The notes below the pieces were generated by a model. That model made no database searches. It saw only the letters and a list, made by a program, of their open reading frames with translations, and was not told the origin of the DNA. Source: Nostoc punctiforme PCC 73102 (GTDB taxonomy: Bacteria; Cyanobacteriota; Cyanobacteriia; Cyanobacteriales; Nostocaceae). Taken from it: a stretch of DNA of 32,000 nt. The translations under genes and the position numbers were made by a program. Location: assembly GCF_000020025.1 (NCBI RefSeq), contig NC_010628.1:1980001-2012000 (forward strand), given 5' to 3'. This document shows, in pieces, positions 5,749 through 31,953 of the stretch. Positions within the stretch are counted from its first letter, which is position 1. Every line of letters starts with the position of its first letter.

Positions 5749-7812
5749 ATGCTCTGTTGTGTGAATCCCGATTGCCAAAAACCCCTAAATCCTGATAAAA
5801 ACAACTATTGCCATAGTTGTAGAGCAGAATTAATACCCCTGCTGGGAGGTCGCTATCGTCCCACTCAGGTGTTGTCAGATGAGGGCGGATTTGGTAGAAC
5901 CTATTTGGCAGAAGATGTACACAAGCTGAATGAATGCTGTGTTGTTAAGCAATTTGCCCCAAAACTTCAGGGAACTGGGCCACTAACAAAGGCCATTGAA
6001 CTATTTAAACAAGAAGCAAGTCGACTACAAGAACTCGCCGAACATCCACAAATTCCAACTTTATTGGCTTATTTTGAGCAAAATGGCTATCTGTTTTTAG
6101 TACAGCAATTTATCGATGGGAAAAACTTGCTTAAGGAATGGGAAAGGCGCGGAAACTATAGTGAAACAGAGATTCGCGAACTTTTGCTAGATTTACTGCC
6201 CGTACTGAAGTTTATCCATGTACGGGGAGTGATTCATCGGGATATCAAACCACAAAATATTATTCGTCGTCAAAGTGACGGGCGATTAGTGCTAATCGAT
6301 TTTGGAGCCTCTAAGCAGCTGACAGTAACAGTGCAGACTAAAATGGGCACTGTTATTGGCTCACACGGTTACACTGCACTTGAACAGATGCAAGATGGCA
6401 AAGCTTACCCAGCCAGCGATTTATTCAGTTTAGGGGCGACTTGTTTTCATCTACTGACTGGAGTTCGTCCATCTCAACTGTGGGTACAACAAGGCTATAG
6501 TTGGGTTGGATCTTGGCGACAATATTTAATCAGTCCAGGTAAAGACGGCGTTTCTGTATCTATAGAGTTGGGTGAAGTTTTGGATAAGCTGTTGCAACTA
6601 GATATCCAAAAGCGTTACGAATCGGCTGATGAAGTCATCGCTGACTTGACACCTGGGCTATCACCATTGCCATCACTGCCCGTAACTGTACTTACATCAA
6701 CATTTGCATCTACTCCAGGTAACAAAAGACCATTTTCACTAAGACTAAATAACACGTTAAAAAGTCAACTGCTGTTAATTTCTAGCATTTCGGTATTGGG
6801 ATTGGCGGGAGTTTGGTATTTCCAGACTCGTCCCCATACAATGAGCGAATATTCTCCCTCTAATTCTCCGCCTACTTCTTTGCCTATTTCTTTGCCCTCA
6901 AAAAGCGATTTTCTACCCAAAGCCTTCAAGGGGCATTCCAGCGATGTGAATTCTGTAGCTTTCAGTCCTGATGGCACAACCCTTGGTAGTGCCAGTGATG
7001 ATAAGACAATCAAGCTATGGAATCTGGCCCGTGGAGAGGAAATCCACACTTTAGAAGGACATTCCAATTGGATTTGGACTGTAGCCTTCAGTCCTGATAG
7101 TAAAACCCTCGCCAGTGGTAGTGCAGACAAGACAATCAAACTGTGGAATGTGGAGACAGGAAAGTTAGTCCGCACCTTAGAGGGAAATACTGACGGAGTT
7201 ACTTCTGTAGCTTTCAGTCCTGATGGCAAAACTCTTGCCAGTGGTACTGCTAGTAAGGATATAAGAATCAAACTGTGGAATGTGAAGACAGGAAAGTTAA
7301 TCCGCACTTTAGAGGGACATACTGATGGTGTTCCATCTGTGGCTTTTAGTCCTGATGGCAAAACTCTGGCTAGTGGTAGCTGGGATAAGACAATTAAATT
7401 GTGGAATTTAAATACAGGCAAGGAAATCCGCACTTTAAAAGGAAATGCAGAGTCGATTCTTTCAGTCGCTTTTGCGCCTGATGGTGTCACCCTTGCCAGT
7501 GGCAGTAAAGACAAAACAATTAAATTGTGGAATCTAAATACAGGTAAGGAAATCCGCACTTTAAAGGGACATAAGGATAAGGTTAATTCTGTTGCCTTTT
7601 TGCCCAGTGGAACTCAAAATGGCCTTACCCTTGTCAGTGGTAGCAGTGACAAGACAATTAAACTGTGGAATCCTTTAACAGGAAAGGAAATTCGCACTTT
7701 AGATACAGGTTCTGGATATATTTATGCGATCGCTATCAGCCCAGATGGAGAAACTATTGCCGGTGGTGGAAGTGGTGAAAACATTCTCAAGATTTGGCAG
7801 CCGATTCACTGA
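5749..7812 (+). CDS. Ser/Thr protein kinase with an N-terminal 4-Cys zinc-ribbon prefix, one TM segment and a 7-blade WD40 propeller (687 aa)
   Basis: Zinc-ribbon prefix: CVNPDCQKPLNPDKNNYCHSCRAEL. Hanks kinase motifs: GGFGRTY, VVKQF, HRDIKPQNII, DFGASK. TM segment: LLLISSISVLGLAGVWYF. This is followed by seven GHxxxVxSVAFSPDGKTLASGSxDKTIKLWN repeats. Confidence 0.92.
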   Translation: MLCCVNPDCQKPLNPDKNNYCHSCRAELIPLLGGRYRPTQVLSDEGGFGRTYLAEDVHKLNECCVVKQFAPKLQGTGPLTKAIELFKQEASRLQELAEHPQIPTLLAYFEQNGYLFLVQQFIDGKNLLKEWERRGNYSETEIRELLLDLLPVLKFIHVRGVIHRDIKPQNIIRRQSDGRLVLIDFGASKQLTVTVQTKMGTVIGSHGYTALEQMQDGKAYPASDLFSLGATCFHLLTGVRPSQLWVQQGYSWVGSWRQYLISPGKDGVSVSIELGEVLDKLLQLDIQKRYESADEVIADLTPGLSPLPSLPVTVLTSTFASTPGNKRPFSLRLNNTLKSQLLLISSISVLGLAGVWYFQTRPHTMSEYSPSNSPPTSLPISLPSKSDFLPKAFKGHSSDVNSVAFSPDGTTLGSASDDKTIKLWNLARGEEIHTLEGHSNWIWTVAFSPDSKTLASGSADKTIKLWNVETGKLVRTLEGNTDGVTSVAFSPDGKTLASGTASKDIRIKLWNVKTGKLIRTLEGHTDGVPSVAFSPDGKTLASGSWDKTIKLWNLNTGKEIRTLKGNAESILSVAFAPDGVTLASGSKDKTIKLWNLNTGKEIRTLKGHKDKVNSVAFLPSGTQNGLTLVSGSSDKTIKLWNPLTGKEIRTLDTGSGYIYAIAISPDGETIAGGGSGENILKIWQPIH

Positions 7813-23591: not shown

Positions 23592-26500
23592 TCACCGGCA
23601 TCCTCGACTGAGTAGCAACTTTCCATTAGCCAGTCGATAAAGCCCTTCTGCTTCGATAATAGGGTCGCCTTTTTTCCAAGCACGTGATGTTGGTTCAATA
23701 TTACGCACTTTACCAGTAGAATATGCTGAAATTAATCCACTCCCTGGACTATTACGTAAAGCACCAGAACCAGTGATGAAGAATGTACCACCTTGCTTGG
23801 AACTGCGTGAAATGCAACTATTGGCGATGAGTGCATTGGTATCGATGACGTTTGGAGATGCTCCAGTAAAACTGTTTTGAATGGAACTGGTATCGGGTGC
23901 GTTAATATTAGTGATACCTGAAACACCTAATTGAGAACTTGCAGTAATATCACTTTTTTCGGTCAGCTTTGTCCGCGACTCGATACCAAAGATACCTTGC
24001 GAGTTGATTTGGACTTTCCCACCGGAACCAGTGTATGCATTGGCGCTGATGTCGCTGTTTTCTTCGGGGATGGCGACGATAAATCTAGAGTTGATATTGA
24101 TGTTACCGCCATTTCCACCAGCTTGGCTTCTACCTGCGGTGGTTGAAATTAAACCGCGATCGCGCAAAAATAATAAACCATTGATATCGAGGGTGATATT
24201 ACCACCATTACCTGTATTTGTGAAAGAAGCAATACCGCTACCTTTACCAATAATTTCCAGAAAATTAGCCTTAATTCTAATATTTCCAGCGTCACCCGTA
24301 CCGATGCTGCCGGAAACAATTTCAGCATCATCACGTACAATCAGGCGATTGGTAGTAATATCTATATCACCACCTTTACCATTAGCCCCTTCGTCAACTG
24401 ATGATAGTAATCCATCTGCAAACTCACTATCTGAACCAGTCAGGATAATGTTATCAGCTTTTACCGTTAAATTACCTGCGTTTCCATTTCCCTGAGTTGC
24501 TGATGATATCTGTGATTCTTCTTGTACATTTAATAGTTGAGTTTTGATGCTGATATTGCCTGCATTGCCTTTAGCTTCACTGTCAACCTGAGTTCTGATA
24601 CTACTACTTCCGCGTAAATCAATTTGATTGGCATTAATCCCAATATTTCCCGCATTACCTTGACCGAATGTAGAGGCAGAAATTTGTCCGTTATTGCTAA
24701 GGTTTAAGCGTCCTGTTATAACGTCAATGTTTCCCCCAGAACCAATTCCTCGCGTTTGTAATTCGGCAAATAAACCTGATGGTGCTGAACCATTTAATCC
24801 TTCTCCACCAACCCCATTAATATCAATAGAATCAGTAGCATGAACCACCAAATTACCCCCTTGTCCCTGCCCCAATAACACTGAGGTTGATATATTTCCA
24901 CCATTACTCAATCGCAACCTTTCCGTGTCAATAGTTATTGTGCCACCTCGGACATCGGTATTACTTCCAGTAACATTCGAGGATAAGTTACTTATCTCAT
25001 AAAAACCCCCGAACCGAGACAGAATTTCTTGTGTTAGAGGCTCAGACAAAAATTCTTCCGCAGCAACTTGGTCTAGTCTAGCCAACAACTGTTCTTTAGG
25101 TACGAAAATAAACCCATCCAATTCTACATCTTTGGCGCGGATAGTAATATTCCCGGCATTACCACTGCTTCTAGTGGATGTGCTCCTTATATTTCCTCCT
25201 TGACTGACAGTGACTCGCGGTGTTTCAATTGCTACATTACCTCCATTTCCTGAACCAGAAGATGTACTGCTTGATACATTGCTAGAGAAACCGCTAATCT
25301 CTACGTATTCACTAGCTTTAATAAAAATGTTAGCTGCATTTGCACTGCTAGAAGTATCTGTACTGATATAACCCGCATCTTTGAGACTGAGTCGCTGGGT
25401 TTCAATGGTAATATCCCCTGCTGTTGCTTGAGTTGTACTTCCAAATGGTGTAGCAATACCTGTAGATATATTACTTTTAGTCACCTCAACGGCATTCCGA
25501 GCCTGAATGAAAATAGAACCGACATTTCCACCACCAGATCCAGTTGCTGTTACTCCCTCCCCTAATAAATTATTTTGAAGTCGCAAAGTGCCTGTTTCAA
25601 TCCGCAGATTACCTGTTGAACCCGAACTTAAGCTTCCGAGTCTTAAAGAGCCTTTATCAGTGATATTGACAGCATCTGTTGATCGCACAGTCAAGTTTCC
25701 TGCATTACCTGCACCTCCAGACCCAACAGAGACAAAGCCACCATTGATATTAACCGAGTCCGTAGCATTTAAAGTCAGGTTCCCTCCACTGCCTTGGCCA
25801 AAACTCAATGCAGAGAGAATACCGCTATTTTCTGCTATTCCATCTCCAGTAATTGCGATTTTCCCGGCATTGATGCTAATGTCGCCACCCCCACCCGTAG
25901 CAGAAGCGCTACTAGCAGATAAAATCGTACTGCTGTTAGCAAGAGTTACTGCATTGCTAGCTTGAATTTGAATATCACCACCCTTCGCTGTACCAGTAGT
26001 ACCACTCTGAATTCCAGCGCCGTTATCTAAATTCAATTGAGTCGCATCAACAAAAATTGAGCCGCCATTGCTACCAAAAATAAATGAACTATTTAAGCCA
26101 ATCTGACCCCCAAATAATTCAATTGCACTATTTCCAGTTGCAACGATAAAGCTGTCATTTGTTAAGTTGATGGGTGCGCGTCCGAAATTTTCTGGTAATT
26201 TAAAACCCAATGAGGAACCCTTGACATTTAGGCCAACAGTTGTATCTATCCCAACTGCTCCCAATTTAACTTGTCCATTTTGAGTAAACAAATAACTACC
26301 ATCCAAGGTGATTTCACCGCCAATAAGTGCTAGTGTGCTACCAGAGCCAACACGTAAAGCATCAACAATATTTCCCTGTGAATTCAGAATTACTGCTTGG
26401 CTAGTAATATTTCCAGATTGTGAACCAAACTGCAAACCAACAGGTACATTGATACTCAACAATGGCTGCGGTTGTGGATTTGTAGCGCTAAACTCTACCC

Positions 26501-26939
26501 CATTGGGAAAAATTAAACTATTTGCTGTTGTCCCCAAAAAAGAACCTTGTATATCTAAACTGGCATTTTTACCAAACACAATGCCATTGGGATTTAGCAA
26601 AAACAAATTTGCATCGCCTAATACTCCCAATCTCCCAAAAATGTTAGATGAATTACCACCAGTAACGCGAGAAAAAATATTTGTTATCCCGTCTGGATTG
26701 GCGAAATAAACGCCTCGACCAACACCGACGTTAAAATCTTGAAAGCTGTGAAATAGGTTACTACTACGAGCCGCACCGCCATCGATAATGTCATTATTTC
26801 GATCGAAAGGAATGACTTGCGATCGCTCTTTCCCCAAGCTGTTATCGGGAGTTAACTGAGCAAAAGCAGGATGAATAGAAACTGCAACTGCTCCCACGCA
26901 CCCCAACCATCCTGCGACGCTAAACCGCAAAATTTTCAT
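23592..26939 (-). CDS. TPS-domain (filamentous-haemagglutinin N-terminal domain) beta-helix exoprotein, TpsA-like (1115 aa)
   Basis: Signal peptide ...SIHPAFA|Q. TPS domain: NLFHSFQDFNVGVGRGVYFANPDGITNIFSRVTGGNSSNIFGRLGVLGDANLFLLNPNGIVFG (NPNGI motif). More than 20 degenerate GxxGN(I/L)x(I/V) beta-helix rungs follow. The Cys-containing C-terminal region reads CISRSSKQGGTFFITGSGALRNSPG...LLLSRGCR. Confidence 0.9.
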   Translation of the reverse strand: MKILRFSVAGWLGCVGAVAVSIHPAFAQLTPDNSLGKERSQVIPFDRNNDIIDGGAARSSNLFHSFQDFNVGVGRGVYFANPDGITNIFSRVTGGNSSNIFGRLGVLGDANLFLLNPNGIVFGKNASLDIQGSFLGTTANSLIFPNGVEFSATNPQPQPLLSINVPVGLQFGSQSGNITSQAVILNSQGNIVDALRVGSGSTLALIGGEITLDGSYLFTQNGQVKLGAVGIDTTVGLNVKGSSLGFKLPENFGRAPINLTNDSFIVATGNSAIELFGGQIGLNSSFIFGSNGGSIFVDATQLNLDNGAGIQSGTTGTAKGGDIQIQASNAVTLANSSTILSASSASATGGGGDISINAGKIAITGDGIAENSGILSALSFGQGSGGNLTLNATDSVNINGGFVSVGSGGAGNAGNLTVRSTDAVNITDKGSLRLGSLSSGSTGNLRIETGTLRLQNNLLGEGVTATGSGGGNVGSIFIQARNAVEVTKSNISTGIATPFGSTTQATAGDITIETQRLSLKDAGYISTDTSSSANAANIFIKASEYVEISGFSSNVSSSTSSGSGNGGNVAIETPRVTVSQGGNIRSTSTRSSGNAGNITIRAKDVELDGFIFVPKEQLLARLDQVAAEEFLSEPLTQEILSRFGGFYEISNLSSNVTGSNTDVRGGTITIDTERLRLSNGGNISTSVLLGQGQGGNLVVHATDSIDINGVGGEGLNGSAPSGLFAELQTRGIGSGGNIDVITGRLNLSNNGQISASTFGQGNAGNIGINANQIDLRGSSSIRTQVDSEAKGNAGNISIKTQLLNVQEESQISSATQGNGNAGNLTVKADNIILTGSDSEFADGLLSSVDEGANGKGGDIDITTNRLIVRDDAEIVSGSIGTGDAGNIRIKANFLEIIGKGSGIASFTNTGNGGNITLDINGLLFLRDRGLISTTAGRSQAGGNGGNININSRFIVAIPEENSDISANAYTGSGGKVQINSQGIFGIESRTKLTEKSDITASSQLGVSGITNINAPDTSSIQNSFTGASPNVIDTNALIANSCISRSSKQGGTFFITGSGALRNSPGSGLISAYSTGKVRNIEPTSRAWKKGDPIIEAEGLYRLANGKLLLSRGCR

Positions 26940-26972
26940 AATTTTGAACGCCCTATTTTTCTATTACTGCCC

Positions 26973-27006
26973 AGATCCCCAAAAACTTTTACGAAGTTGG
27001 GGATCT
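26973..27006. repeat. Hairpin AGATCCCCAA..AACTT-TTAC-GAAGTTGGGGATCT between the DUF928 and TpsA genes
   Basis: Read directly. The arm sequence (GATCCCC..ACTT / AAGT..GGGGATC) is the same family as 11818-11846. Confidence 0.55.
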
Positions 27007-27039
27007 AAATCATCATTTCTATTCGCAGAATTTTTCCAG

Positions 27040-27771
27040 TTAGCGATCGCTAACAATCTTTTGGAGATATTCGATGCGTTGCTGAGTATTTTTTTGATCT
27101 ACGTCTTTACCTATCAATATTTCGGACTCTGCAAGGTTTTTAACTAAAGTTGCCCCGATCTGCCCTAGTTTACCATTATCAGTTCCTTTCAATGCTTCTT
27201 GGAGTGCTTCATACCATAGATCGTTTTCAGCATAATAATTTACGCTTTCGGAAATGCTAGTAAATTGGTTTTTAGCAAGTGGTTGAGGATCGATAACGGT
27301 AAATTCTGCACGTCTAACAATCGCGCCATTTTCACAGTCAATTGAGATTTGCCATGAATATGTTTTGCCCACTGTGAGTTCGGGGTAGTCGCGGGGAAGT
27401 TCTAGCTTGTTAACCCCGACTATTGTGGGTATTTCTTGAACTTTGCCAATTTGTTTAGGGTTGTTGCTTGAATCAAATTCAGCCAATCGGAATCGCACAT
27501 TTTGGGAACTTGACATATACCAAGCTAACATTGGACGGGTGGAAGTGGTTTTACCAATATATGTCTGAGGTGCAAGCGGTGTCAGAGGTATACTGCCGTT
27601 ACTTGGACATCCACGGGAACCACCTGCACGGGAATGTCCGCTAGCTGGTTTGCGATCGCGTGGTTTAAACTCAGCAAATGCTGGCACTGCTGTCATTAAA
27701 AAAACCATGCCCACAACTAAGCTTGTAAGTCTGCGGTTATTTCGCCAAAATCCAATATGTTGATGACTCAT
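27040..27771 (-). CDS. DUF928-family secreted protein (243 aa)
   Basis: Signal peptide ...TAVPAFA|EF, then FKPRDRKPASGHSRAGGSRGC and LTPLAPQTYIGKTTSTRPMLAWYM. As I recall it, this matches the DUF928 N-terminal pattern (F-x-P-P..GGGSRG..C..L..L.P....G.T....P.F.WY). Confidence 0.72.
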   Translation of the reverse strand: MSHQHIGFWRNNRRLTSLVVGMVFLMTAVPAFAEFKPRDRKPASGHSRAGGSRGCPSNGSIPLTPLAPQTYIGKTTSTRPMLAWYMSSSQNVRFRLAEFDSSNNPKQIGKVQEIPTIVGVNKLELPRDYPELTVGKTYSWQISIDCENGAIVRRAEFTVIDPQPLAKNQFTSISESVNYYAENDLWYEALQEALKGTDNGKLGQIGATLVKNLAESEILIGKDVDQKNTQQRIEYLQKIVSDR

Positions 27772-27881
27772 GGTAGATGTTGTTGATTGTAGGGTTATCT
27801 GAAACTTTTTAAATTCTTAATTTTTTCCCATTTCTATGAGAGATTGTTTTAAAAGTTGCTAGTTATGTATCAAATAGTTTT

Positions 27882-27958
27882 AGATCCTCCTAAATCCTTC
27901 TTAAAAAGGAGGACTTTGATTGCTTATTCCCCCATTTTTTAGGGGAGATAGGAGGGAT
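27882..27958. repeat. Dispersed intergenic hairpin repeat (TCCTCC...AAAAAGGAGGA ; TTCCCCC-ATTTTTT-AGGGGAG)
   Basis: Two adjacent short stem-loops read directly, downstream of the CHASE2 kinase gene. Confidence 0.45.
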
Positions 27959-28016
27959 AGTGATACAATTTGGTACTTTTTAAACATTCTCTGAGCTGAA
28001 TCATGAATATAAAGTT

Positions 28017-29909
28017 TTAAAACTCAAATTCTCTCTTAAGTTTCCAACTAAGTTCACAGATAGTCCCGCAAGGAGAAAGTGATTCGCGTCGAAATTCTCC
28101 TCTTAATTGTTGAGCAAGTATTTTAGAATGCTTTGTGCCTTTATTTTCTAGTTTTGATGTGATTCCCGAACCATTATCTTTGACGGACAATTTATAGTTA
28201 TTTAAACTACAAACACCTGATGCTTCTACACGCTTGACTCCTTGGGCATGTTTGCCAACATTACACAAAGCTTCTTCCAAAAAAAGGCAAACTCCGCGTT
28301 TGTCTTCCATACTTAAATATTTATCATCAATTGGGTCAAAATTGCGAATTTTAACTTTTAATGTTTTAAAATTTTCAAAATCCTTCCGTTCTAAGGTACT
28401 AGAATAAACTTCATATAACAAATCGTGAAGTGGTCGATTCAATTCAAGAATTAATCCGCTACCTAAACGCAAACTCTCTTCTGTAGTTAATGCTTCGAGT
28501 TTGAGAAATTCGCCAATCTCTCTAATCTCCCGATCGAGTTTTTCAAATTGTCCTAGCAATTGCTCGTAGGAGATATCTTTAGCACGTAGATGCTTTAATC
28601 CATAAGCGAGGGTTTGCAAAGGGCCATTATGAATTACGGTAAAAGTGTTTTGAATGGTGTTTTGACGTTCGTGAATTTGCGATCGCAAGAATTTATCATG
28701 CTGATAAAATGCAAAGGCACTCAAACCTACGCCATTTACGGCTAATACAAGCAAACCCGGTGTTACAGGAATCCATACACCCCACACCCACAGCATTATA
28801 TACCCGCAGCTAAACAGACAAAATCCCGCTACACTCACACTCAGTATATTTTTCCAAACAGATTGGGTCAGCCGTCCGATCGTAATCGGCAAAAACCCCC
28901 AAATCAATATCCATGTATACTCTCCAATATCTCCCCAACTGTGCAACATTGGGCGACCATCCATTACAGTACTCAAAATTTGACTGATAACATGAGCGTG
29001 ATAGTCAATGCCATAAATTTGACCGCTTAATTTTAAGCCAGGCAAGGCAGATGTATAAATAGCATCTCCTGTACTCAGGTTGCGGTTGCCAACTAACACA
29101 ATGCGATCGCGCAGCAATTCTGCATCAACTTGACCATTGAGAATATCGCGTAGCGACACAACATTAAAAGGTTGCTCACTGTTGCGGAAGTTCATTAAAA
29201 TTGACAATCCCCCATCATCAACCCTGACGTATCCGCCAAAATTATGGGTAATTCGAGGTAATTCAATCCCACGGAAGTTGATTGTATTCGGGTCATTTTT
29301 CCCCGTTTGCAACTCAATTCCTTTTGCATTTAAATACTTAGTAACTAACCGTAATGCTAAAGAATATTTATCTTCGTTGATATTTTTAGGATTCGGCGTA
29401 TACAACAAATAGCGTCGATTTTTGCTATCCTCATCATTAGGTAAATCAACAAACCCAACTCCTTCGGGTCGCAAGCTCTGGGGTGGTGAAGTTTCTGCCG
29501 GGGGTAAAATTTTTTCAATGCCAATAATATTAGAATTTGACCGTAATATATGCGCTAGTTGTTCGCCACCAGGTTCAACAGGAACATTTTTGAAGATATC
29601 CAAACCAATAGCTAGGGGTTTATAAGTTTCCAGCTTGGTGAGCAACTCTGCAATCTTCTCATCTGGAATTGGATACTGCTTAATCCATGCAATATCCTTT
29701 TCATCGATACCCACAATTACTACACGTTCATCAAGTTTTTCTACCGGACGTAGACGTAACATCGTATCGAGAAGCATCCATTCCCAAGATTGCATTCCCC
29801 CAGTTATTCGGATCAACATCACCACAAATAGGACTATAATCCCTGGAGGTGCAGCCAGCGACCACAACCCAAATTCTTGGCAAATACGATTCCAGATTCC
29901 CCTTCTCAT
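28017..29909 (-). CDS. CHASE2-domain sensor histidine kinase (HisKA_3/NarX-type transmitter) (630 aa)
   Basis: An N-terminal TM segment is followed by an extracytoplasmic CHASE2-like region (RVVIVGIDEKDI...YPIPDEKIAELLTKLETYKPLAIGLDIF...IVLVGN). Three TM helices follow, then an H-box-like VIHNGPLQTL, an N-box EEALCNVGKHA and a G1 box VKDNGSGI. Confidence 0.82.
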   Translation of the reverse strand: MRRGIWNRICQEFGLWSLAAPPGIIVLFVVMLIRITGGMQSWEWMLLDTMLRLRPVEKLDERVVIVGIDEKDIAWIKQYPIPDEKIAELLTKLETYKPLAIGLDIFKNVPVEPGGEQLAHILRSNSNIIGIEKILPPAETSPPQSLRPEGVGFVDLPNDEDSKNRRYLLYTPNPKNINEDKYSLALRLVTKYLNAKGIELQTGKNDPNTINFRGIELPRITHNFGGYVRVDDGGLSILMNFRNSEQPFNVVSLRDILNGQVDAELLRDRIVLVGNRNLSTGDAIYTSALPGLKLSGQIYGIDYHAHVISQILSTVMDGRPMLHSWGDIGEYTWILIWGFLPITIGRLTQSVWKNILSVSVAGFCLFSCGYIMLWVWGVWIPVTPGLLVLAVNGVGLSAFAFYQHDKFLRSQIHERQNTIQNTFTVIHNGPLQTLAYGLKHLRAKDISYEQLLGQFEKLDREIREIGEFLKLEALTTEESLRLGSGLILELNRPLHDLLYEVYSSTLERKDFENFKTLKVKIRNFDPIDDKYLSMEDKRGVCLFLEEALCNVGKHAQGVKRVEASGVCSLNNYKLSVKDNGSGITSKLENKGTKHSKILAQQLRGEFRRESLSPCGTICELSWKLKREFEF

Positions 29910-29975
29910 TTAATTTAATTTAGGATTAATTTTCCCTATATTTACAGCATATTTAAAGTATTTGAACGAAATTTG

Positions 29976-30085
29976 TTGTAGATGCACAGCAATGCTATAC
30001 CTCTAGCATGTAGTCTATTTACAGCTATTTTCAGATAAATAGACCAGCCGTTGTAGAGGCAATTCATGAATTTCCCCTACAACGG
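29976..30085. repeat. Three consecutive hairpin repeats in the RR-HK intergenic gap
   Basis: ATGCTA-TACCTC-TAGCAT, then GTCTATTTA-(14 nt)-TAAATAGAC. The third is CCGTTGTAGAGG-CAATTCATGAATTT-CCCCTACAACGG (30049-30085), whose loop contains the palindrome AATTCATGAATT. Confidence 0.6.
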
Positions 30086-30130
30086 ATGTGGTTCAGATAC
30101 ATGCAGTGCTGTGAGTGAAAATAGCTGTAA

Positions 30131-30853
30131 TTAATCAATTAAACCTTCTTCACGGGAACGAATTTCGGTGAGGATTCGCATATTCTTACCACTTTGCTTG
30201 CAGTCTTCAGGATACACCCCCAAAACATCCTGAATCTTCGTCCAGTAAGTACGTACCGCTCGCTCCGATTTATACATTCTGTCTGCGATCGCCTTATCTG
30301 TTAAACTCTCTTCAAAAGCCAAACGCAACACATCCAACCATTCCGGCTTGAGTTCGATTCCTGTTTTGATGTCTTTGGTGTGAGTTGCACCTTGGAGTGC
30401 TAAATTAACCCGCATGAGCATTTCATCTTCGGGTAATCCTTTATCTGCGATCGCAAACCCACCTTGATGATTATCAATCTCGTGTTTAATTCTGACTAAT
30501 GCCTTCACATAACTAGTTTGCACTATGAAATTCTGATGGGGATATTCTTTAAGCAAAGTTTGCAACAGCTTAATTCCGGTATCAATTTCTGCTGTCTCCC
30601 CTTGGCGATCGGGAATTGATAAATCCATCACAATCAAGTCAAACTGGTAACATTGCACTTGAGAAAATGTATCTTTTGCCGTCTGAGCCTTGATAATAGT
30701 AGCTTCAGGATACTTTCGACTTAAGACATCAAGAGTACCAGTCAAAATTAGTTGGTGGTCATCAACAACAAGAATACCGAGCTTCTTTTCCATTCTTAAA
30801 TGCCCATAAACTTGATGTTCTTTCAAACTTTTCATCACCATATTTTTATCCAA
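30131..30853 (-). CDS. Response regulator: receiver domain plus divergent LuxR/NarL-type HTH output (240 aa or shorter)
   Basis: Receiver: ILVVDDHQLILTG...FDLIVMDLSIPD...IVQTSY. C-terminal LTDKAIADRMYKSERAVRTYWTKIQDVLGV follows the LuxR HTH spacing. The start is uncertain, with in-frame Met codons at MVMK and MEKK. Confidence 0.8.
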   Translation of the reverse strand: MDKNMVMKSLKEHQVYGHLRMEKKLGILVVDDHQLILTGTLDVLSRKYPEATIIKAQTAKDTFSQVQCYQFDLIVMDLSIPDRQGETAEIDTGIKLLQTLLKEYPHQNFIVQTSYVKALVRIKHEIDNHQGGFAIADKGLPEDEMLMRVNLALQGATHTKDIKTGIELKPEWLDVLRLAFEESLTDKAIADRMYKSERAVRTYWTKIQDVLGVYPEDCKQSGKNMRILTEIRSREEGLID

Positions 30854-31094
30854 ATTAAAAGTTTTTTATGCTTTACTACTCAATACTTGGCTATTGCAGG
30901 TAATATTTAAAACAGCACTCTTTTAAATGTCCTCTTTAAACTCTCCGCCTATTTTAATTTGAGATGAATGCCCTACCTATGCAGAAAAGTGCAAATAATG
31001 CCGAGAGGAGATTGTTCATCACTACTAGCTTATTTTTAATTCATGCACTGAGAAGGTTCTGGGGATCTGGATATTGTAGTATGATTTATTGACG

Positions 31095-31953
31095 ATGACA
31101 AAACCCGCGGATGTCAGCACCAAACGCTTAATTAGCCTTGCACCCGACAACTGGTGAGATGGGTAACTCAAATTCCTGACATTACAGTTGGGGAAATTCT
31201 TAACTCGGAATTTCAATGGATAAGTAGGGAAAGTGATGTTTTAATCCGCGTTGAAAGTCCCCTAAATGGAGAATTTCTAGTTCTCACCGAATTACAATTA
31301 CGCTATAACTCCAAAATGCCCCGCCGAATGCGCGCGTATGCTTCCTTAGCGGAAGAGAAGTATAATTTACCGATTTATCCTGTACTAATCAACATTCTAA
31401 AAGTAAGCGACACGCAAATTCCCACAACCTACACATCGAATGTTGCAGGTTTACAATCACGTCAAGATTATCGCGTCATTAATTTGTGGGAAGTTGATGT
31501 GAATATTGTTTTTGAACAACCTTTACCATTATTGCTTCCCTTTGTACCAATTCTCAAAGGTGGCGAGAATGAATCCATAATCCGGGAAGCATTGCAAATT
31601 TTGCGTAGAGATGAACAATTAAACCAACTAGAAACAGTTTTGCTACTTTTGTACTAGAGAGTGCCTTAGTTCAGGAAATCATGAGGTGGGATATGGCTGT
31701 GTTGCGCGAATCACCTTGGTATCATGAAATTTTACGCGAAGGAGAAGCTCTTGGGGAAGCCCGTGGGGAAATTCGTGGAGAAGTCTGTGGAATTCAGACG
31801 GGTCTTGAGACGTTATTAGAGATAAAATTTGGCAATCCTGGCTTGGAATTAATGCCAATTATCTATCAAATTAAAGATTTACAGCAATTGAAAGCAATTC
31901 AACAAGCCATCAAAACCGTAAATTCCGTTGAGGAATTGAGGCAGCTTTTATAG
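31095..31953 (+). pseudogene. Rpn-family recombination-promoting nuclease / putative transposase (PD-(D/E)XK N-domain plus DUF4351 C-domain), interrupted by two 1-nt frameshifts
   Basis: Three consecutive frames together spell one protein. The first segment, MTKPADVSTKRLISLAPDNW, stops at 31155-57. The second, from 31154, reads VRWVTQIPDITVGEILNSEFQWISRESDVL...ETV. The third, open from 31615, reads FATFVLESALVQEIMRWDMAVLRESPWYHEIL.... The shifts sit at a GG run (~31153-31154) and a TTTT run (31638-31641). Confidence 0.7.

Follow-up and report, generated by a model that had tools for sequence, protein, structure and literature searches.

A conserved cyanobacterial gene module with a CHASE2 two-component system, DUF928 and two-partner secretion in Nostoc punctiforme PCC 73102, with DUF928 as a candidate periplasmic partner of CHASE2

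Introduction

In the bvgAS-fhaB-fhaC locus of Bordetella, a two-component system is encoded beside the two-partner secretion (TPS) adhesin that it controls. In the ExoR-ExoS/ChvI and CpxP-CpxA/DegP systems, a small secreted protein binds the periplasmic domain of a kinase, and a periplasmic protease removes that protein and switches signalling. In Pseudomonas aeruginosa, a cysteine hook at the C-terminus of the TPS-secreted surface protein CdrA keeps it in the CdrB pore until the periplasmic protease LapG frees it (PMC7616799, PMC4694147, bioRxiv 10.64898/2026.07.13.738186). The CHASE2 domain is generally taken as a receptor domain whose ligands are unknown (PMC10581220; PMC8195603), and the ligands were still called unknown in 2023 (PMC10581220). 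Here, a stretch of 32,000 nt from Nostoc punctiforme PCC 73102 (NC_010628.1, positions 1,980,001 to 2,012,000; hereafter the window) was analysed, in which four consecutive minus-strand genes encode a response regulator, a CHASE2 sensor histidine kinase, a DUF928 protein and a TpsA-type exoprotein. Taken as a whole, the best explanation, which we hold with about even confidence, is that the four genes are the N. punctiforme copy of a cyanobacterial envelope module with DUF928 as the CHASE2 partner and with an anchored TpsA.

A conserved and co-varying periplasmic partner would give the question of CHASE2 ligands a concrete candidate, and CHASE2 is found in kinases, cyclases, diguanylate cyclases and caspases. 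Each family of the module is already known; what is new is the combination of two-partner secretion with a CHASE2 two-component system of its own, a putative co-sensor in the periplasm and an exported caspase-like protease. In the searchable literature (subscription journals outside scope), there was no description of this combination, no paper treating the CHAT domain together with two-partner secretion or filamentous hemagglutinin, and no mention of DUF928 beyond a WD40 survey that noted a CHASE2, DUF928 and WD40 cluster in N. punctiforme (PMC5587647). The host is a genetically tractable model of multicellularity, motility and symbiosis.

Materials and Methods

Related loci were collected by a genome scan with a DUF928 alignment, giving 80 DUF928 loci (labelled with the prefix L), one per species-level genome and all cyanobacterial, from Nostocales, Coleofasciculus, Moorena, Symploca, Microcoleus, Pleurocapsales, Chroococcidiopsidales and Leptolyngbyaceae. 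The search pattern was taken from an alignment of 18 DUF928 sequences, as an alignment of 61 sequences was too diverse. Open reading frames (ORFs) were called, clustered using BLASTP and labelled by profile searches within the dataset, and representatives were verified with Pfam. The 74 loci in which the gene directly upstream of DUF928 was scored are those having enough flank. A distant DUF928 representative (P0240) lay on contigs of 2-3 kb without gene context. Co-variation was analysed in an exploratory manner by partial correlations among pairwise distance matrices from 55 loci for DUF928, the periplasmic CHASE2 domain, the transmembrane block, the kinase core and the regulator. The TpsB transporter of PCC 73102 was searched for using the TpsB of a relative (L011) as the query.

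Results

Gene order around DUF928

The first-pass annotation, made from the letters of the window alone, had stated that DUF928, CHASE2 and TPS genes recur together in cyanobacteria, often with CHAT and ShlB-type genes, and this recurrence has now been measured in the 80 loci. A CHASE2 kinase gene lies directly upstream of DUF928 on the same strand in 62/74 loci, and a regulator gene lies upstream of the CHASE2 kinase in 58/60. TPS and/or TPR-CHAT genes follow within 10 kb downstream in 57 of 62 loci (47 each), and TpsB is present in 15/62. The arrangement is polar: for the 57 loci with regulator, kinase and DUF928, the 271 downstream genes include 50 TPS, 46 CHAT and 12 TpsB genes, compared with 1 TPS, 2 CHAT and 1 TpsB among the 246 upstream genes of the same loci. 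The co-localisation far exceeds chance. Six families are broadly recurrent, namely DUF928, the CHASE2 kinase, the regulator, TPS proteins, a TPR-CHAT protein of ~900 aa and the ShlB/POTRA_2 TpsB; no further gene family was found around more than 12 of the 80 loci. Representatives verified with Pfam include ShlB with POTRA_2, TPR with CHAT, and a TPS-CHAT fusion.

In its fullest form, the module has the regulator, CHASE2 kinase, DUF928 and TpsA genes on one strand, a convergent gene for a TPR-CHAT protein with a signal peptide, and TpsB. Parts of it also occur separately. DUF928 is kept beside TPR-CHAT/TPS in loci that have no kinase gene (L040, L043, L055, L062, L064, L065, L083, L086, L088), and the regulator-kinase-DUF928 set occurs with no TPS or CHAT gene nearby in five loci (L029, L033, L038, L069, L071). 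All of the 47 full-length TPR-CHAT proteins (47/47) have a positively charged start, a hydrophobic stretch and an A-x-A-like site, and the catalytic His and Cys are conserved. Because of this N-terminal signal or anchor and the conserved catalytic residues, the TPR-CHAT proteins are exported and probably active cysteine proteases. The extracytoplasmic parts of the module are thus DUF928, TPR-CHAT, TpsA and the CHASE2 domain, and the gene order of the module is conserved.

Co-variation of DUF928 with the CHASE2 domain

The partial correlation between the DUF928 and CHASE2 domain matrices was 0.61, a value reached by 0 of 999 label permutations. It ranged from 0.52 to 0.69 in half-samples and was 0.59 when close Nostoc loci were removed. 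The kinase core and the regulator, used as the positive control, gave 0.65, and all other pairs of the five-part matrix lay between -0.16 and 0.30. For the CHASE2 domain and the periplasmic TPR-CHAT protein, the value was -0.01 (n=28), and a simple compartment effect is therefore disfavoured. DUF928 and TPR-CHAT gave 0.23 (n=28) and 0.66 (n=14). We infer, fairly strongly, that DUF928 would be a periplasmic partner of CHASE2, acting as a co-sensor or as a protein ligand. The functional tie of the CHASE2 kinase to extracytoplasmic proteins, as suggested in the first-pass annotation, is supported by the gene order across cyanobacterial orders and by this co-variation.

The DUF928 protein matches its Pfam family (PF06051) with an E value of 4e-27 and 95.6 bits against a gathering cut-off of 26, and carries a signal peptide at aa 1-33 (...PAFA, followed by EF). 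The remainder consists of a flexible, conserved N-terminal peptide that ends at R53-G-C55, a 7-strand beta-sandwich (aa 73-159) and four helices (aa 173-241, with LWYEAL), as seen in an AlphaFold model with pLDDT 79 and pTM 0.76. Foldseek searches with this model returned generic Ig/FnIII-like folds only. In the DUF928 alignments, C55 and C146 are invariant in A2 and nearly so in A1 and A3, and R53 is invariant or nearly so; C55 and C146 are candidates for a disulfide. The family comprises 1251 clusters at 50% identity (E <= 0.001). The sequence just 5' of the DUF928 start codon (27772-27813, minus strand; ...AGATAACCCTACAATCAACAACATCTACC-ATG) is kept in 16 of 17 Nostoc loci and contains a TACAAT box that ends 15 nt before the ATG; this stretch may act as a promoter within the module or in the control of translation.

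Kinase, regulator and the upstream block

The CHASE2 domain of the kinase was matched by Pfam at 5.6e-62, and hydrophobic windows at aa 12-42 and 354-401 place transmembrane segments on both of its sides. The two public start calls differ, the GenBank protein (ACC80316.1) having 586 aa and the RefSeq protein (WP_041565268.1) having 630 aa; the longer form fits the CHASE2 topology because it includes the N-terminal transmembrane segment. The catalytic part is divergent. HATPase_c was found below the cut-off (E 0.009), HisKA_3 had no match, and there were weak matches to the ATPase regions of PhyK and of DosT (the latter in the PDB). The H-box IHNGPLQTLA, the N-box FLEEALCNVGKHA and the G1 box KDNGSGI are kept in at least 90% of 65 kinase orthologs, and the H-box is invariant. 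The regulator has a receiver domain at aa 27-117 (Response_reg, 5.9e-9), and its GenBank/RefSeq start lies 12 nt downstream of the TTG start, giving 236 aa. Its helix-turn-helix is divergent, scoring below the Pfam cut-offs with both GerE (E 0.083) and Sigma70_r4 (E 0.0016). The regulator aligns to the NarL-class DevR/DosR (3c3w) over residues 27-213 with an E value of 2e-9, and the acidic pocket (D31/D32), D76 and the LuxR-like helix-turn-helix are kept in 64 regulator orthologs. The DevR/DosR alignment and the boxes and residues conserved in orthologs support the kinase and regulator assignments despite the weak profile matches. Among the domains named in the first-pass annotation, TPS, DUF928 and CHASE2 were thus confirmed by Pfam/NCBIfam searches and the receiver was also recovered, while for the transmitter and DNA-binding parts the expected profiles were absent (HisKA_3) or sub-threshold (HATPase_c, GerE).

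A block of ~60 bp (ATTTGCACTTTTCTGCATAG...ATTCATCTCAAATTAAAATAGGCG), some 85-145 bp ahead of the regulator gene, is the sole stretch that aligns well in the upstream region of 16 Nostoc loci, the rest of which is unalignable. Its 18-mer core, TTGCACTTTTCTGCATAG, occurs once in the window (30977-30994), where 0.03 occurrences are expected. Each of 21 Nostoc loci likewise has a single copy, invariably ahead of the regulator gene and at no other place in the locus. The block is a candidate promoter/operator of the module. A scan of the window for consensus promoters and terminators gave sites that were not enriched over shuffles and was uninformative on operon structure.

The TpsA exoprotein

Judged by its signal peptide and TPS domain, TpsA is a TPS-type passenger, and its export is predicted. 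The Sec-type signal peptide spans aa 1-27 (MKILRF...HPAFA, followed by QL), and the textbook TPS domain with an NPNGI motif described in the first-pass annotation was borne out, with matches of 1.9e-55 in Pfam and 3.4e-25 for TIGR01901 and with the motif in the context LLNPNGIVFG. The repeat region has 12 G-x-x-G-N-[ILV] motifs. The only cysteines are C14, C1042 and C1114, of which the mature protein retains C1042 and C1114 alone. The C-terminus had been taken for a short Cys-containing tail; it is instead a conserved domain of ~110-120 aa with two near-invariant cysteines, shared by 56 TPS proteins from related loci and by another 21 cyanobacterial sequences, with 47-98% identity among the homologs. 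Its motifs are IDTNALIANSC ... F.ITG.G ... WKKGDPI.EP.G.YRL..G.L.LSREC, with C1042 belonging to LIANSC and C1114 to the SR(E/G)C at the terminus. A homolog search with this domain returned 24 short cyanobacterial fragments and nothing else, and a Pfam search with it gave no family match. The earlier statement that there is no toxin domain and no immunity-like ORF after the gene was upheld, as no toxin family matched TpsA in Pfam/NCBIfam and the next gene is hemD, which begins 46 bp downstream. TpsA is tandemly duplicated downstream of DUF928 in the two closest non-punctiforme relatives, L009 (1110 and 1132 aa) and L010 (1116 and 1104 aa), and is present as a single copy in the window.

The TpsB transporter and its separate site

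The first-pass annotation had found no TpsB in the 32 kb. This holds for the window, where none of the ORFs encodes a ShlB/POTRA or CHAT protein and no unassigned ORF is long enough for a TpsB, but it does not hold as a missing transporter. The genome search for a ShlB-type gene that had been proposed found ACC80204.1 (P0278), a TpsB ortholog with POTRA_2, ShlB and Omp85 domains. It shares 92% identity with the TpsB encoded inside the module in Nostoc sp. P9121. It lies ~110 protein accessions from TpsA as an isolated gene beside another REC-GerE regulator, and the same isolated arrangement is found in Nostoc sp. LEGE 12450. Because this intact ortholog is encoded elsewhere in the genome, TpsB has been separated from the module by local rearrangement and has not been lost. 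The idea that TpsB is missing from the genome was rejected on finding ACC80204.

In two close relatives (L011, L013), whose DUF928 proteins are 86-87% identical to that of the window, the order is regulator, kinase, DUF928, TpsA, convergent TPR-CHAT and TpsB. At this site, the window and L007, L009 and L010, which together form the N. punctiforme group, have neither TPR-CHAT nor TpsB, and hemD directly follows TpsA. The surroundings of the orphan TpsB (L089 and L092) contain a divergent REC+GerE regulator gene (231 aa), an Npun_R1517-family gene, ndhM, a PP2C phosphatase gene and a gene for an FHA-CHAT protein. The conserved 18-mer core of the module is not present near the orphan TpsB.

Proposed mechanism

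In the proposed mechanism, the kinase would phosphorylate the NarL-type regulator, which would in turn control transcription of the module, and the case for this step is fairly strong. The following steps are put forward with less confidence. TpsA may cross the outer membrane via the unlinked TpsB and may display its Cys-free beta-helix on the cell surface, while its C-terminal domain, closed by a predicted C1042-C1114 disulfide, might serve as a periplasmic anchor or handle in the manner of the CdrA cysteine hook. The C-terminal Cys pair expected for retention of the CdrA type is present in TpsA; its disulfide and location are predictions only. In the relatives, the periplasmic TPR-CHAT cysteine protease might process the TpsA anchor and/or DUF928, a role that could be that of LapG for CdrA or that of the proteases removing ExoR or CpxP from their kinases. 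DUF928 might then inform the CHASE2 kinase of the state of the surface protein. N. punctiforme would have lost TPR-CHAT and TpsB from this site. In its most extended form, this would be a surveillance circuit, in which DUF928 is the CHASE2 ligand or co-receptor, the TPS beta-helix is anchored by its periplasmic Cys-loop domain, TPR-CHAT cuts this domain and/or DUF928, and the kinase responds by resetting genes for the cell surface or for filament adhesion in multicellular cyanobacteria; we consider this full circuit rather doubtful. Control of a surface adhesin by the circuit, if true, would matter for the adhesion of filaments and for sheath or colony formation in many cyanobacteria.

Several observations weigh against the envelope module with DUF928 as the CHASE2 partner. 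All 80 loci come from a single DUF928 subfamily, as orthologs or near paralogs. They were picked via a C-terminal peptide pattern and do not represent the family at large, and the counts therefore reflect conserved synteny over deep divergence and not independent events. The DUF928-CHASE2 correlation depends on the subset, falling to 0.34 in the 26 loci that carry TpsA (mostly Nostoc) and to 0.18 in the 14-locus set, and the signal could come from shared periplasmic rate shifts instead of contact. DUF928 and the TpsA C-terminal domain do not co-vary (~0.02, n=26). The AlphaFold model of that C-terminal domain is unconfident (pLDDT 40), and its fold and location are not derivable from it. The spacers of the window exceed those of its relatives and the promoter-like sites are not enriched, which makes co-transcription of the four genes no more than a possibility. 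No TPR-CHAT gene is found near the module in N. punctiforme, L007, L009 or L010, so the protease step may not apply to N. punctiforme; the 90%-identity clusters of the TPR-CHAT proteins of three relatives, which were the clusters read, hold no N. punctiforme member. The CHAT domain encoded just past the end of the window, in a CHAT-CHASE2 fusion described below, belongs to another subfamily and lies on the cytoplasmic side.

Alternative explanations

Part of the same evidence fits a one-way scheme, in which the kinase and an accessory DUF928 sense an external small molecule or envelope cue and TpsA, TPR-CHAT and TpsB are mere targets encoded beside their regulator, like fhaB and fhaC beside bvgAS in Bordetella, with no feedback. 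The two-component genes come first with the exoprotein genes downstream, the regulator-kinase-DUF928 set stands alone in the five loci listed above, co-variation is absent between DUF928 and the C-terminal domain of TpsA, and CHASE2 is seen as a receptor domain with unknown ligands (PMC10581220; PMC8195603). DUF928 keeps the company of TPR-CHAT/TPS in the kinase-less loci, however, which ties it to the exoprotein and protease side too, and its correlation with TPR-CHAT reaches 0.66 in the small 14-locus set. One-way regulation is a reasonable possibility that falls well short of an even chance. The local absence of TPR-CHAT and TpsB in the window, L007, L009 and L010, together with spacers expanded by repeat-like insertions, could instead mark a decayed remnant, in which TpsA is unsecreted or the four genes are uncoupled. 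Against decay, the four ORFs are intact and 87-97% conserved among strains of the N. punctiforme group, L009 and L010 even have TpsA as a tandem pair, an intact and 92% conserved TpsB ortholog is encoded elsewhere in the genome, and the conserved upstream block is retained, all of which make a remnant very improbable.

A role in conflict or kin recognition is improbable as well. It would make TpsA an effector resembling those of contact-dependent inhibition (CDI), or the locus a CHAT/caspase abortive-infection or death system with the CHASE2 kinase as the trigger. A pair formed by an EACC2-caspase(CHAT)-CHASE2 protein and a DUF1822 protein adjoins the module, its class being predicted as apoptosis- or immunity-like (PMC8195603). 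Systems of this kind often include CHAT proteases, and CDI (CdiBAI) uses TPS proteins to deliver toxins. On the other side, the TpsA C-terminus is conserved rather than polymorphic and matches no toxin domain, no small immunity-like ORF precedes hemD after TpsA, PADLOC models match no component beyond generic receiver and TPR domains, and the locus is stable and vertically conserved, which is not the pattern of a variable island. The CDI-type toxin form of this reading was rejected on the grounds of the conserved TpsA C-terminus and the absent immunity gene.

Features of the window and of the adjoining genes

Coordinates are provided in Table 1. The four consecutive minus-strand genes and the gaps between them, as first annotated, were confirmed from the ORF calls.

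Table 1. Positions of the module genes, their domains and the adjoining genes. Positions are those of the window unless a locus is given.
Feature	Position	Strand	Accession or basis
TpsA-type exoprotein, 1115 aa	23592..26939	-	ACC80314.1 / B2J0U7, exact N. punctiforme PCC 73102 match
TpsA TPS secretion domain (aa 27-265, including NPNGI)	26145..26861	-	Pfam PF05860
TpsA conserved C-terminal domain (aa 996-1115)	23595..23954	-	Conservation in related TPS proteins
DUF928 protein, 243 aa	27040..27771	-	ACC80315.1; Pfam DUF928
CHASE2 sensor histidine kinase, 630 aa	28017..29909	-	WP_041565268.1; GenBank ACC80316.1
CHASE2 domain of kinase (aa 26-340)	28890-29834	-	Pfam CHASE2, periplasmic
Kinase core, divergent HisKA_3-like (aa 403-630; H426)	28020-28703	-	
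Response regulator, 240 aa from TTG	30131..30853	-	ACC80317.1, annotated 'LuxR family'
Conserved non-coding block, ~60 bp	30936..30996	-	Alignment of Nostoc loci
DUF1822 protein, 322 aa	L001:4380-5348	- in locus	DUF1822 8.8e-88
CHAT-TM-CHASE2 fusion, 781 aa	L001:1867-4212	- in locus	ACC80319.1; CHAT 6.3e-18, CHASE2 3.2e-66
Second DUF928, 278-300 aa	within L001:952-5348	- in locus	ACC80320.1

The spacers of the window are 100 bp (TpsA-DUF928), 245 bp (DUF928-kinase) and 221 bp (kinase-regulator). By locus extraction, they are 224, 248 and 103 bp (regulator-kinase, kinase-DUF928, DUF928-TpsA), compared with 30-34, 46-94 and 26 bp in the relatives, and the short spacers of the relatives are compatible with an operon. 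The longer spacers of the window hold hairpin or repeat-like insertions. The regulator-kinase spacer contains nested inverted repeats, with 18-nt arms at 30016-30033 and 30116-30133 around a 44-nt palindrome (30045-30088), which look like a small inserted hairpin element. The DUF928-TpsA spacer has a hairpin with a 9-bp stem at 26974-27005 on the minus strand (GATCCCCAA-N14-TTGGGGATC) with no T-run after it, and a sequence related to this hairpin, with GGGGATC, is found at 31053-31070 upstream of the regulator gene. An Rfam scan of the window gave no match. The remaining ORFs of the window are unrelated and of housekeeping type (UPF0182, Ser/Thr kinase-WD40, ClC channel, PmbA, Tab2, phosphoesterase, HAD, Pyr_redox, Fer4_12, FecCD, SMR, HSP20, ferredoxin and HemD). 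The Ser/Thr kinase-WD40 protein is encoded at 5749-7812 on the plus strand, and WD40 proteins (cluster c6) are encoded beside DUF928 in 11 loci (e.g., L064, L065, L070 and L078).

Two further observations were made in the related loci. A 1630-aa protein (L075:4789-9681) has an N-terminal TPS domain fused to a C-terminal (TPR-)CHAT region, and from this fusion the protease itself would be TpsB cargo in at least one genome. A serralysin-like metallopeptidase (Peptidase_M10 and M10_C; L024:13381-14541) is encoded by a gene interspersed with those for TPS, CHAT and TpsB proteins at ~12 of the 80 loci (cluster c5, 12 loci, e.g., L042, L045, L052, L059, L080 and L086) and is a possible accessory component of the module.

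Two contigs with the exact DUF928 protein (L001, L002) extend past the right end of the window and contain three divergently oriented genes, for a DUF1822 protein, a CHAT-TM-CHASE2 fusion and a second DUF928 protein (Table 1). The CHAT gene that had been expected with the module is thus present, just outside the window, in the form of a CHAT-CHASE2 fusion with a second DUF928. The fusion and DUF928 have consecutive accession numbers in six Nostoc genomes. With this second pair, N. punctiforme has two CHASE2-DUF928 pairs side by side that differ in their output domains. No gene for an extracytoplasmic function (ECF) sigma factor was found in the 10 kb examined. Between the two modules are two small plus-strand ORFs, at 31154-31657 (167 aa) and 31681-31953 (90 aa), which are found only in the N. 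punctiforme group and gave no Pfam match. Both are apparently unannotated in GenBank, as the accession numbering leaves no space for both, and presumably they resemble a split Rpn-like nuclease/DUF4351 gene.

Comparison with known systems

The closest described relative of the adjoining pair is the EACC2-caspase class, in which a variable C-terminal sensor (including CHASE2) and DUF1822 occur and which is predicted to be apoptosis- or immunity-like (Kaur, Iyer, Burroughs, Aravind 2021, PMC8195603). The DUF1822 and 781-aa CHAT-CHASE2 pair outside the window has the same architecture in its CHAT, CHASE2 and DUF1822 parts; the same paper has no mention of DUF928, TPS or ShlB genes (PMC8195603). 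The module of the window differs in having a histidine kinase output and no caspase. With CdiB/CdiA/CdiI, the module shares the Sec signal, the TPS domain and a long beta-helical TpsA, and it differs in that the TpsA C-terminal domain is conserved and is not a polymorphic toxin, there is no immunity gene, and TpsB is not adjacent.

The likeness to bvgAS-fhaB lies in a periplasm-sensing kinase and a NarL/FixJ-class regulator encoded next to the TpsA gene, and the C-terminal prodomain of FhaB remains periplasmic and is proteolytically processed. BvgS, however, senses with Venus-flytrap domains and not with CHASE2, there is no equivalent of DUF928 or CHAT, and the FHA prodomain is far larger and unrelated in sequence to the TpsA C-terminal domain. 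The ExoR and CpxP systems resemble the role proposed for DUF928 with CHASE2 and TPR-CHAT, a role that is predicted only; there is no kinship in sequence or fold, DUF928 being an Ig-like beta-sandwich with four helices.

The P. aeruginosa CdrA/CdrB-LapG/LapD system is similar in its TPS-secreted fibrillar surface protein with a C-terminal Cys pair, its periplasmic cysteine protease able to act on the periplasmic end, and its inner-membrane signalling protein that couples to a cellular signal. It differs in that the protease of the module is TPR-CHAT (caspase-like and absent beside the module in this genome) where LapG is transglutaminase-like, and in that a CHASE2 histidine kinase with a DNA-binding regulator takes the place of the c-di-GMP receptor LapD. 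The module is without a TAAG site and has an extra periplasmic DUF928 and an unlinked TpsB, and neither a LapG-type (BTLCP) protease nor a LapD-type receptor turned up in the window or among the 80 related loci. By analogy, the module may work like CdrA/LapG, yet it is no member of the CdrA/LapG-type systems.

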